64,000 bases of DNA, taken from contig JAGOSK010000002.1 in the NCBI GenBank assembly GCA_018062305.1, positions 5,495 through 69,494 on the forward strand, given 5' to 3'. Of the stretch, positions 6,522 through 8,545 are shown piece by piece. The translations under genes and the position numbers were made by a program. The first letter of the stretch is position 1, and each line of letters begins with the position of its first letter. The notes beneath the pieces were generated by a model that made no database searches, had not been told where the DNA came from, and saw only the letters and a program-made list of their open reading frames with translations. The stretch comes from Minisyncoccota bacterium (lineage in GTDB: Bacteria; Patescibacteriota; Minisyncoccia; Phycocordibacterales; CAIZLB01).

Positions 6522-8545
6522 TTTAGTTAGAGTTTGATCCTAGCTCAGGATGAACGCTGGCGACATGGATAAGGCATGCAAGTCGAACGGAAACATTTGA
6601 GATTATATCAATTTTGTTTTAGTGGCGAACGAGGTAGTAATATATAGGTACGTCCCCCAAAGTCGAGAATAACTCATCGAAAGATGAGCTAATACTCGAT
6701 AGTCTCTACGGAGTAAAGTTTTAACGCTTTGGGAACGGTCTGTACGATATCAGCTAGTTGGTAGGGTAATGGCCTACCAAGGCAACGACGTCTAGAGGAG
6801 CTGAGAGGCTGACCCTCACCGATGGAACTGAGACACGGTCCATACACCTACGGGTGGCTGCAGTCGAGAATCTTCCGCAATGGGCGCAAGCCTGACGGAG
6901 CGATGTCGCGTGATTGATGAAGTCCTTCGGGATGTAAAGGTCTTTTATGAGGGAGAAAGTTATTGATAGTACCTCATGAATAAGGGGTTGCTAAACTCGT
7001 GCCAGCAGCAGCGGTAATACGAGTGCCCCAAGCGTTATCCGGAATTATTGGGTGTAAAGGGTGTGTAGGAGGTTGTATTAGTCGTATGTCAAAACTCTGG
7101 GCTTAACCTAGAATCTGCACGCGAAACGGTACAACTAGAGGACGCGAGAGATGTGTAGAACTCATAGTGTAGGGGTGAAATCCGTTGATATTATGGGGAA
7201 TACCAAAAGCGAAGGCAGCACATTGGCGCGCTCCTGACTCTGAAACACGAAAGCGTGGGTAGCGAATGAGATTAGATACCTCAGTAGTCCACGCCCTAAA
7301 CGATGTTCATTTGCTTTTCGGAGTATCGACCCTCTGAGAGGCGTAGCTAACGCGTTAAATGAACCACCTGGGTATTACGACCGCAAGGTTAAAACTCAAA
7401 GGAATAGACGGGGACTTGCACAAGCAGTGGATTATGTGGTTTAATTCGATGGTAAACGAAGAACCTCACCAGGGTTTGAAACCCACGTGAAAGCTCCTAG
7501 AAACAGGAGCCCTCGCAAGACTAGTGGACAGGTGCTGCATGGCCGTCGTCAGTTCGTGGTTTGAATTGTTCCCTTCAGTGGGGTAACGAACGCAACCCTC
7601 GTCGTGTGTTACAAGTGTCACACGAGACTGCCCCCTCTCGGGGGAGGAAGGTGAGGATGACGCCAGGTCAGCATGGCCCTTTGATACCCTGGGCTACACA
7701 CATAATACAATCGCCGTTACAACACGACGCAATACCGTAAGGTGGAGCAAATCGTTAGAAAAACGGCGCCAGTTCGGATTGAGGTCTGCAACTCGACCTC
7801 ATGAAGCCGGAATTGCTAGTAATCGCGGGTCAGATATACCGCGGTGAATACGTTCTCAAGTCTTGTACTCACAATAAAAGCGCGCAGCTGGATATAGCGC
7901 TAAGTCGTTAAAATCGACTCCTTCAAGATCGTCTCTTGAAGCGTAGCTGAAGAATAGCCATAGACCGCGAGGTGTATGGTGGAGGATTCGGAAGCAAATT
8001 GCAGTGTTAATTACTAAAGCTTTCTTAACAGTTAGTTTTGGACGATAATCGAGCTTTGAAAATAGGGCGGTGAGCAAAGCGAAGATTCATAGAAAAATCG
8101 TTTAATAATGCAATAGAACAGTGCTATATCTTACCTGCGGAGATCTGACGTATGTTACGTGAAATTTTATTGAATAAATAAAATTAGCGCGTATAATTAA
8201 ACTTACGCAGCGTCAGAAGTCAGCTGAGTCATAGTAACCTTACATAATTGTGAAAACAAAATGTAAATGAAGGACTCACTCTAGAGATAGTCTGTGTATA
8301 TAAAGCAGACAATGCACTAAATTAGTGTAGCGAAAGCTCCTCTGGAGCTCGCGCAGTGCGGGAAAACCGCTCGCTGCGTGGGAACTTCCATTCACAGTTT
8401 AGTGAAAATATTCGCCCGTCAACTCAAGGGAATCAGGAATACTCGAAATCTCACCTAGTGTGGGCTTACAGTAAGCTTGGTGACAGGGAGTAAGTCGTAA
8501 CAAGGCACGGGTAGCGGAAGCTGTTCGTGGAATCATTCAATTTGA
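6522..8545 (+). rRNA. rrs: 16S ribosomal RNA gene carrying an intervening sequence of about 540 bp near the 3' end
   Basis: AGAGTTTGATCCTAGCTCAG lies at 6529. Conserved blocks are GTGCCAGCAGCAGCGGTAATAC (about 7000), ATTAGATACC (about 7270), AAACTCAAAGGAATAGACGG (about 7393), GGTGAATACGTTC (about 7840) and GTCGTAACAAGG (about 8495). The h45 hairpin with its GGAA loop is at 8506..8529. Length minus the insert is about 1490 nt. Confidence 0.9.
7873..8411 (+). other. ORF-less intervening sequence or putative intron inside the 16S gene (between TGTACTCAC and GCCCGTCA, E. coli position about 1400)
   Basis: The universally conserved TGTACACACCGCCCGTCA is split by about 540 nt of unrelated sequence. 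No ORF longer than 73 aa is present, and that one is antisense with no nuclease motifs. Confidence 0.7.

Follow-up and report, generated by a model that had tools for sequence, protein, structure and literature searches.

In the genome of a Minisyncoccota bacterium (GenBank assembly GCA_018062305.1), the 16S rRNA gene is interrupted within the segment that encodes the ribosomal decoding centre, which raises the question of what the interrupting sequence is and whether a continuous rRNA could be made from such a gene. The question was addressed for a stretch of 64,000 nt (contig JAGOSK010000002.1, positions 5,495 to 69,494, forward strand), which is called the window here and to which coordinates refer unless a locus is named. 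A first-pass annotation, made from the letters of the sequence, had described an insert of about 540 nt lacking an open reading frame (ORF) and had offered three explanations: a group II self-splicing intron, a group I intron, or an intervening sequence (IVS) that is excised and leaves the rRNA in fragments. We conclude that the insert is very probably a group II intron with a IIC-type ribozyme core, which has lost the LAGLIDADG homing-endonuclease gene present in domain IV of its relatives. The group II assignment is supported by the domain architecture, covariation within a family of homologues, exon-binding pairings, and homology with group II introns that encode a reverse transcriptase (RT).

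Insertion Site and Boundaries

An Rfam scan of the window matched the bacterial small subunit (SSU) rRNA model RF00177 from 6522 onward with 1246 bits, and the piece 8405-8542 matched the same model alone (model positions 1383-1533, 66.6 bits, E 3.9e-19). The conserved 16S run ...CTTGTACTCAC (or ...GAATACGTTCTCAAGTCTTGTACTCAC) stops at 7872, and conserved sequence picks up again at 8413 as CGCCCGTCA (or CGCCCGTCAACTC...), with C8413 corresponding to C1400 and being the first base of exon 2. The 16S gene occupies 6522-8542 on the forward strand and contains one insert of exactly 540 nt, at 7873-8412, between positions 1399 and 1400.

An allele without the insert was found in L252 (GCA_021734945.1, JAIPIA010000003.1), a related Paceibacterota metagenome-assembled genome (MAG) reached through a member of a pyruvate-kinase cluster; lookups with the two genes flanking the window 16S gave only contigs that break at the 16S. 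The gene order in L252 is that of the window (SecD, SecF, methyltransferase, 16S, ORF, tRNA), and its 16S gene (L252:4296-5776, 1481 nt, RF00177 1349 bits) reads GTCTTGTACTCACCGCCCGTCAACTC at the site with no insert, the empty site being TTGTACTCACCGCCCGTCAAC. Removal of 7873-8412 from the window gene leaves 1481 nt, of which 1477 (99.7%) are identical to the L252 16S; all four differences lie within the first 565 nt, and the last 916 nt are identical. Because the L252 allele lacks the insert and has the same length, the boundaries 7872/7873 and 8412/8413 are unambiguous, and the insert is therefore not an expansion of a native helix, a possibility that the first-pass annotation had set against its own reading. 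The interruption that it reported was borne out, both by the SSU matches on either side and by the empty-site allele. Of its coordinates, 7873-8411, the start was correct and the end fell one base short of the true end, 8412; conserved sequence, which it took to resume at GCCCGTCA, resumes one base earlier, at C8413. The L252 allele also shows that the U at 16S position 1396 (GUACUCAC) is a trait of the lineage and not a by-product of the intron. The annotation of the window is thereby settled as one 16S gene with one intron and a mature rRNA of 1481 nt, as follows.

6522..7872, + strand: 16S rRNA exon 1 (E. coli about 1-1399); RF00177 match; colinear with the intron-less 16S of L252
7873..8412, + strand: 540 nt, very probably a group II intron that has a IIC-type core and no ORF; absent from L252; folds much more stably than shuffled controls (minimum free energy z = -6.1); 92 other complete homologues at the same site
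8413..8542, + strand: 16S rRNA exon 2 (E. coli about 1400-1542), its first base C8413 being the delta'/IBS3 base (see below); RF00177 match; identical to L252 here

Outside the 16S gene, the window and L252 are far more diverged (methyltransferase about 73% identical, upstream spacer about 71%, spacers 71-84%). The 99.7% exon identity amid such neighbours reflects either unusually slow rRNA divergence or a recent exchange of rRNA genes, a point relevant to deciding between gain and loss of the intron.

A Family of Homologous Introns at the Same Site

Relatives were sought with a motif that spans the J2/3 linker and the beginning of domain III. The generic form, CAGAAGTCAGCNGAN{1,4}CATAGTA, was found in at least 120 bacterial genome loci; in this first scan the matches listed were mostly ordinary RT-encoding group II introns, with one relative of the insert, L102, among them. 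L102, from a Paceibacterota MAG, is homologous to the insert and occupies the same position in the 16S; its domain IV contains a LAGLIDADG-type ORF, and its motif has a 2-nt rather than 3-nt spacer. The version with the 2-nt spacer proved specific to the 16S-1399/1400 intron family and gave at least 120 metagenome loci. By nhmmer, the insert matched all but three of the 120 loci listed (E down to 8.5e-48), and the element stands directly after ...GTACTCAC at every locus that includes the 5' junction. From the matches listed we extracted 93 complete introns (89 distinct sequences), the window copy included; the other 92 came from metagenomes and one genome and all occupy the same site. A BLAST comparison of the insert with PLSDB plasmids, in distant mode, gave no match.

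Three side observations concern individual members. An extra segment of about 50-90 nt is present between domains V and VI of L144 and L207, which were read directly, and, as judged by divergent sequence before GGGAAC, in L182/L188, L210, L219, and L248; it is absent from the window copy. The 3' end of the L231 16S holds two intron classes: an ORF-less group II intron of this family and, about 80 nt farther downstream, a group I intron (L231:1188-1470; RF00028, 56.4 bits). At L102:3140-3240, a run of N is followed by a duplicate of the intron 3' end and exon 2, which looks like a scaffolding artefact at the 16S.

Secondary Structure of the Insert

An E-INS-i alignment of the 89 sequences, with the window copy as the reference for its columns, served as input to RNAalifold. 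It was found that the consensus consists of six domains with 118 pairs that are 95.4% canonical over the 89 sequences, and 90 of the pairs have changes on both sides. In the controls, sliding the partners by 1-3 columns gave 33-43% canonical pairs, and column shuffles gave at most 74.5%. Of the 118 pairs, 106 form in the window copy, which retains all of the core bases of J2/3 and domain V. Where it differs from the family at conserved helix positions, the changes are compensatory (U-A for C-G at 8005:8107, G-U for C-G at 8006:8106, and U-A for A-U at 8056:8077). The elements of the structure are as follows.

7873..7877, + strand: 5' terminal linker AAUAA, separating exon 1 from the 5' motif; A-rich and 5-9 nt long in all members; each position conserved in 76-86 of 89
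7878..7882, + strand: 5' intron motif AAGCG, the counterpart of GUGCG; in the family A[A/C/U]GCG followed by CCCGGCA or CGCAGCA; aligns with GUGCG-CCCAGCA of L045 (see below)
7883..8139, + strand: domain I, with closing stems 7883-7887/8135-8139 and 7890-7901/8120-8131; RNAalifold, most pairs with 3-6 canonical pair types; sub-threshold match to the Rfam model group-II-D1D4-3
8012..8041, + strand: window-specific insertion of about 30 nt in domain I; columns empty in 84-88 of the 88 other sequences
8140..8217, + strand: domain II, stem UCUGACGU/GCGUCAGA; consensus structure
8218..8225, + strand: J2/3 linker AGUCAGCU; invariant in 89 of 89; lies within the motif common to the bacterial loci
8226..8277, + strand: domain III, with a GAGUC/GACUC stem, an AUAGUA/GAAG internal loop, and an expanded upper stem; sub-threshold match to group-II-D1D4-1; covariation at 8228:8275
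8278..8347, + strand: domain IV, made up of three small hairpins and lacking an ORF; in relatives, a LAGLIDADG gene of about 145 aa is located here (pairwise alignment with L200 and L144)
8348..8382, + strand: domain V, with a 10-bp lower stem, an upper stem, and a GAAAA loop; pairs 8353-8356/8374-8377 show 2-5 canonical types with at most 1 exception in 89
8386..8409, + strand: domain VI, with a 2-bp base, an internal loop, a 5-bp hairpin UUCAC/GUGAA, and the unpaired 3'-side base 8407; both helices covary
8410..8412, + strand: 3' tail AUU, its last base U8412 being U in 89 of 89

Within domain I, an IC-like arm (7946-7995) is capped by GCGA, and the exon-binding loop is borne on an ID arm. 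The window copy has an AU-rich extension of domain II at about 8160-8190, where 81-84 of the 88 other sequences have gaps, and an expanded tip of domain III, the AUAGUA/GAAG loop of which is invariant in the family. In domain V, the triad C8350-G8351-C8352 lies opposite G8378-U8379-G8380, with a G8351-U8379 wobble, and is conserved in 86-89 of the 89 sequences; there is a 2-nt bulge at 8371-8372, and the loop is GAAAA in the window where the family has GAAAU. At the base of domain VI in the window copy, U8387-A8408 pairs and U8386/U8409 is mismatched.

Affinity with Group IIC Introns

In a permissive Rfam scan, the window copy matched group-II-D1D4-3 at 7961-8027 (18.7 bits, below the gathering score of 32) and group-II-D1D4-1 at 8190-8275 (27.5 bits, E 0.0083, below the gathering score of 35). 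The gathering score of the latter model is passed by two relatives, L231 with 45.4 bits and L200 with 37.7 bits. In the comparison with Rfam that the first-pass annotation had proposed, the group I model RF00028 had no match at E<=10, and the group II models gave two colinear matches under threshold.

Four of the generic motif loci were checked, and all four matched both D1D4-3 and D1D4-1, two of them also matching RF00029 (domains V-VI). One RT-encoding locus, L045 (Mesobacillus), is an ordinary class-C type intron: it begins with GUGCG-CCCAGCA, its domain V has the CGC triad in the CGC/GUG arrangement found in the window, and its protein of 433 aa consists of RVT_1 and GIIM with no Pfam endonuclease-domain hit. 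The CGC triad marks group IIC introns. The family has this triad, its ORF-less copies are small (407-631 nt), and it has the motif and the 5' segment in common with L045. It departs from group IIC in its target, which is the strand of the 16S decoding centre and not a terminator- or attC-like stem-loop, in a first intron-binding site (IBS1) of 5 nt plus a delta' base, where group IIC has 3-4 nt, and in a protein that is LAGLIDADG or absent and not of the RT type lacking an endonuclease domain.

Several observations weigh against the group II assignment of the window copy. Its best Rfam score, 27.5 bits for D1D4-1, is under the gathering score of 35, and RF00029 had no match to it at E<=10, nor to L200 or L231 at its gathering score. 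Neither intron end is canonical: AAUAA-AAGCG stands in place of GUGYG, and the 3' end is ...AUU in place of AY, the final U being invariant and preceded by A or U. The bulged base of domain VI is not a conserved A across the family. Excision and ligation of the window copy are predictions from its sequence.

Exon Recognition and the Splice Sites

The following elements are proposed to position the exons; the first exon-binding site is abbreviated EBS1.

7868..7872, + strand: IBS1 CUCAC, the five bases that close exon 1 (16S 1395-1399); complementary to EBS1; invariant in 89 of 89
8070..8074, + strand: EBS1 GUGAG, invariant; part of the terminal loop of hairpin 8053-8080, the stem of which covaries
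8069..8069, + strand: delta-like base G, directly 5' of EBS1, paired with the first base of exon 2; covaries with 8413

Since both EBS1 and IBS1 are invariant, their pairing shows complementarity and no covariation. The pair 8069:8413 covaries without exception over the 89 sequences, with G-C in 83 and A-U in 6, and the six sequences with A-U are spread over at least three separate groups, the other nearest neighbours of which are of the G-C type. In the alignment, G8069:C8413 behaves as a delta-delta' (IBS3-like) pair. This covariation, together with the empty-site allele, places C8413 at the opening of exon 2 and the splice sites at 7872|7873 and 8412|8413; the same two results rule out an intron that ends on C8413 as the Y of AY, in which case the 16S would lose C1400. 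Whereas the equivalent base of IIB and IIC introns is usually found in a domain I loop of its own, G8069 adjoins EBS1, and the arrangement is therefore IIA-like. A candidate EBS2, UGCAA at about 8108-8112, was dropped because it sits inside a covarying helix. Mutual information and targeted searches for tertiary contacts gave only phylogenetic or gap signal, with no credible pair beyond delta-delta', and a targeted search found no covarying partner for the conserved 5' linker.

The six A-U cases are metagenome 16S genes (L166, L198, L202, L243, L173, and L169) that have U for the universally conserved C1400, and each carries the compensating G-to-A change at the intron delta position. If these genes are functional, they specify natural U1400 ribosomes.

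Absence of the ORF and Its Repeated Loss in the Family

That the insert contains no ORF, as the first-pass annotation had stated, was confirmed. No ORF longer than 73 aa overlaps it on either strand, its two longest ORFs had no Pfam hit, and tblastn of a relative's LAGLIDADG protein against the 64-kb window gave a best E of 0.24, outside the intron. Domain IV of the window copy keeps only the CAATGCA segment, which adjoins the ORF start in relatives.

An ORF is also lacking from other members: 17 of the 93 introns are ORF-less, at 407-631 nt, the window copy being the second longest of these, and the other 76 measure 792-994 nt. The ORF of L200 (149 aa), the only family ORF that was scanned, matches PF00961 (LAGLIDADG_1) with a single motif. 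The L200 protein has 1339 homologues at E<=1e-5, each the representative of a 90%-identity cluster and annotated PF00961; the named homologues are Paceibacterota, and the best 120 listed are either unnamed or Paceibacterota, with no Thiomargarita locus among them. Because the ORF-less copies are scattered among the ORF-containing ones, and all but three are closest to an ORF-containing copy, the ORF must have been lost many times. Core identity between ORF-less and ORF-containing partners reaches 99.5% (L150/L102 and L237/L135) and 96.7% (L141/L247); the nearest ORF-containing relative of the window copy is L200, at 79% core identity. The family as a whole has the features of LAGLIDADG-associated group II introns, which are an rRNA host gene, a LAGLIDADG ORF in domain IV or III, and a 5' linker, and the window copy retains the host gene and the linker and has lost the ORF. 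The repeated loss suggests that splicing occurs without an intron-encoded protein.

Alternative Explanations

Two of the three explanations first offered for the insert were rejected. Group I introns are the commonest rRNA insertions in genomes of the Candidate Phyla Radiation (CPR), according to PMC11270868, and L231 has one nearby in its 16S. The insert nevertheless had no match to RF00028 at E<=10, exon 1 ends in C and not U, the intron ends in an invariant U and not G, and the structure is that of group II; we give the group I reading no weight. An IVS cut out by RNase III without ligation, which would leave the 16S in two pieces, has precedent in bacterial rRNA genes, mostly 23S, as described in the same paper (PMC11270868). 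Here, the six-domain covarying architecture and exon-binding pairs are those of a ribozyme, with no simple extended or processing stem, the site is a single-stranded and universally conserved segment of the decoding centre, and, to judge from the delta-delta' covariation, exon 2 is kept in place to be ligated. We consider such an IVS extremely improbable. What stands of the three is the group II intron without an ORF.

The two remaining alternatives accept a group II intron and question its activity. It could be a decayed relic that no longer splices, in a 16S copy that is non-functional, as might be argued from the missing ORF, the window-specific insertions in domains I, II, and III, and the sub-threshold Rfam score. 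This is very unlikely, with exons 99.7% identical to the intron-less allele, all invariant core bases kept, and helix changes that are compensatory; moreover, CPR genomes usually have a single rRNA operon. It could also be that the RNA is not self-sufficient and depends in vivo on a protein acting in trans, which could be a factor of the host or a LAGLIDADG maturase whose gene lies in another part of the genome. Many group II introns require protein cofactors in vivo, and the 5' end and domain VI of the insert are non-canonical. Some LAGLIDADG proteins act as maturases, as noted in PMC11270868. On the other side, no LAGLIDADG homologue was found within the 64-kb window, and the repeated, independent loss of the ORF (17 copies, some with 99% core identity to an ORF-containing one) argues that splicing does not require the protein encoded by the intron. 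Dependence on a protein in trans is thus unlikely, although it is the least improbable of these alternatives.

A Model for Splicing

By every available sequence-level criterion, the window intron is an intact ribozyme, and we infer that it splices and needs no intron-encoded protein to do so. After transcription, the intron RNA would fold into its six domains within the 16S decoding centre. EBS1 would pair with the last five bases of exon 1 and G8069 with C8413, so that both splice sites would be brought to the active site of domain V (the CGC triad and the 2-nt bulge) and J2/3. The intron would then be removed and the exons joined to give ...GUACUCAC-CGCCCGUCA..., as in the intron-less allele.

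The first step is probably hydrolytic rather than branching, with no lariat formed, because a 5-nt linker replaces the G of GUGYG and there is no conserved branch adenosine in domain VI. Base 8407 is A in 46, G in 39, C in 3, and U in 1 of the sequences. It is A in the window copy, 6 nt from the splice site (a canonical branch A is 7-8 nt away), and this copy might therefore still branch. A 5' linker tied to loss of the branch adenosine, and possibly to hydrolytic splicing, has been documented in LAGLIDADG-type group II introns (PMC13190283). Lacking an endonuclease, the window copy would be unable to home by itself and would be inherited vertically or lost.

Relation to Known Introns

Insertions at this position had been said by the first-pass annotation to be reported in CPR rRNA genes, and this agrees with the literature. 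According to Tsurumaki et al. 2024 (PMC11270868), group II intron-like insertions in CPR occur only at 16S position 1400 (site 16IS9), where 53 are described, 39 with LAGLIDADG proteins and 14 without an ORF, and CPR rRNA insertions are reported to be removed from transcripts. The family described here has the same site, the same clade (CPR/Paceibacterota; two proteins of the window carry the NCBI name Candidatus Paceibacterota), and mostly LAGLIDADG_1 ORFs, with ORF-less copies in 17 of 93 cases as compared to 14 of 53 in that study. The window element is a further ORF-less member of the Tsurumaki et al. set, a kind already reported. The 16IS9 insertions were classified by Rfam models, for which the window copy falls below threshold, and in the portion of PMC11270868 consulted their boundaries are stated not to be exact splice sites and no covariation-supported structure is given.

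A second comparison, made by description only, is with the rns-1396 family of IIC introns in Thiotrichaceae (Liu et al. 2026, PMC13190283), in which all members have a 5' linker, a single-motif endonuclease is encoded in domain IV, and there is no EBS2; LAGLIDADG-encoding IIC introns at rns-1396 in Thiomargarita and relatives go back to Salman et al. 2012, as cited there. Both families have a 16S host gene, a IIC backbone, a single-motif LAGLIDADG protein in domain IV, a 5' linker, and a G before EBS1 (G+UGUAC in rns-1396, G+GUGAG in the window), and no EBS2 was found in the window family, although no systematic search was made. The rns-1396 site (GUACA|CACCGC, EBS1 loop G-UGUAC; PMC13190283 Table S4) is annotated three bases upstream and has a different EBS1, and its hosts are Thiotrichaceae plus one Saccharimonadota entry. 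By analogy, rns-1396 looks like the same design aimed three bases upstream.

RT-encoding IIC introns, such as those of O. iheyensis and B. halodurans, insert after terminator-like stem-loops, have a short IBS1, and have EBS3 elsewhere in domain I. L045, as a representative, resembles the family in its CGC triad, the motif CAGAAGUCAGC-GA-CAUAGUA, the 5' segment ...GCG-CCC(A/G)GCA, and a small ribozyme. It differs in having GUGCG at the very 5' end, a 3-nt motif spacer (2-nt in the window family), an RT/maturase ORF, and domains V-VI that are detectable with RF00029. The LAGLIDADG group II introns of fungal and algal mitochondria (rns/rnl) likewise have rRNA hosts, DNA-level homing by LAGLIDADG enzymes in place of retrohoming, 5' linkers with a non-canonical domain VI, and frequent ORF degeneration; they differ in their IIB1, IIB2, and IIA1 backbones, their organellar location, and their mostly two-motif enzymes (Toor & Zimmerly 2002 and Mullineux et al. 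2010, as cited in PMC13190283).

Surroundings of the 16S Gene

The 16S is not followed by a 23S gene, and the Rfam scan found no 23S or 5S in the 64-kb window. Downstream are an ORF of 364 aa at 8846-9940, with no precomputed Pfam hit on record, and a tRNA at 10080-10152; L252 has a different ORF, of 277 aa, in place of the 364-aa ORF. The 3' end of the window 16S (8529-8542) is GGAAUCAUUCAAUU, without the CCUCC anti-Shine-Dalgarno sequence, and the 16S ends of relatives, read by eye, are likewise without it. GGAG, GAGG, or AGGA at -20 to -4 was found for none of the 38 window ORFs of at least 200 aa, as compared to 10.7% of random windows, and a TATAAT-like box precedes many start codons by 6-12 nt, a pattern suggestive of mRNAs that have no leader or a very short one.

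Implications

The current picture of CPR rRNA introns is unchanged by the window element itself. What is added are the exact splice sites, a structure supported by covariation, the delta-delta' pair with its U1400 variants, the affinity with the IIC core, the recurrent ORF loss, and the empty-site allele.

A broader reading, which we put forward tentatively and hold at somewhat short of even chances, is that the Paceibacterota 16S-1399/1400 introns are a distinct and very abundant lineage derived from IIC, which escapes RF00029, recognizes the 3' exon in a IIA-like manner, tolerates C1400U by compensation, and splices without a protein of its own, probably by hydrolysis. The abundance is judged from the more than 1300 endonuclease homologues and the at least 120 loci found in each nucleotide scan. 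If true, this reading would contradict an RF00029-based survey (PMC13011429, 2026) that found no group II introns in Patescibacteria and took them to be undetected or genuinely uncommon there; the null result of that survey is explained by the blindness of RF00029 to this family. It would also contradict the confinement of bacterial LAGLIDADG group II introns to Thiotrichaceae (PMC13190283).

The family breaks the "universal" primer site at 1390-1406, and many CPR lineages would thereby be hidden from amplicon surveys, just as screens that rely on RF00029 miss the introns themselves. The near-identical alleles with and without the intron are a ready pair of substrates for homing and splicing assays, and the ORF-less copies, including that of the window, are natural tests of ribozyme splicing without an endonuclease.

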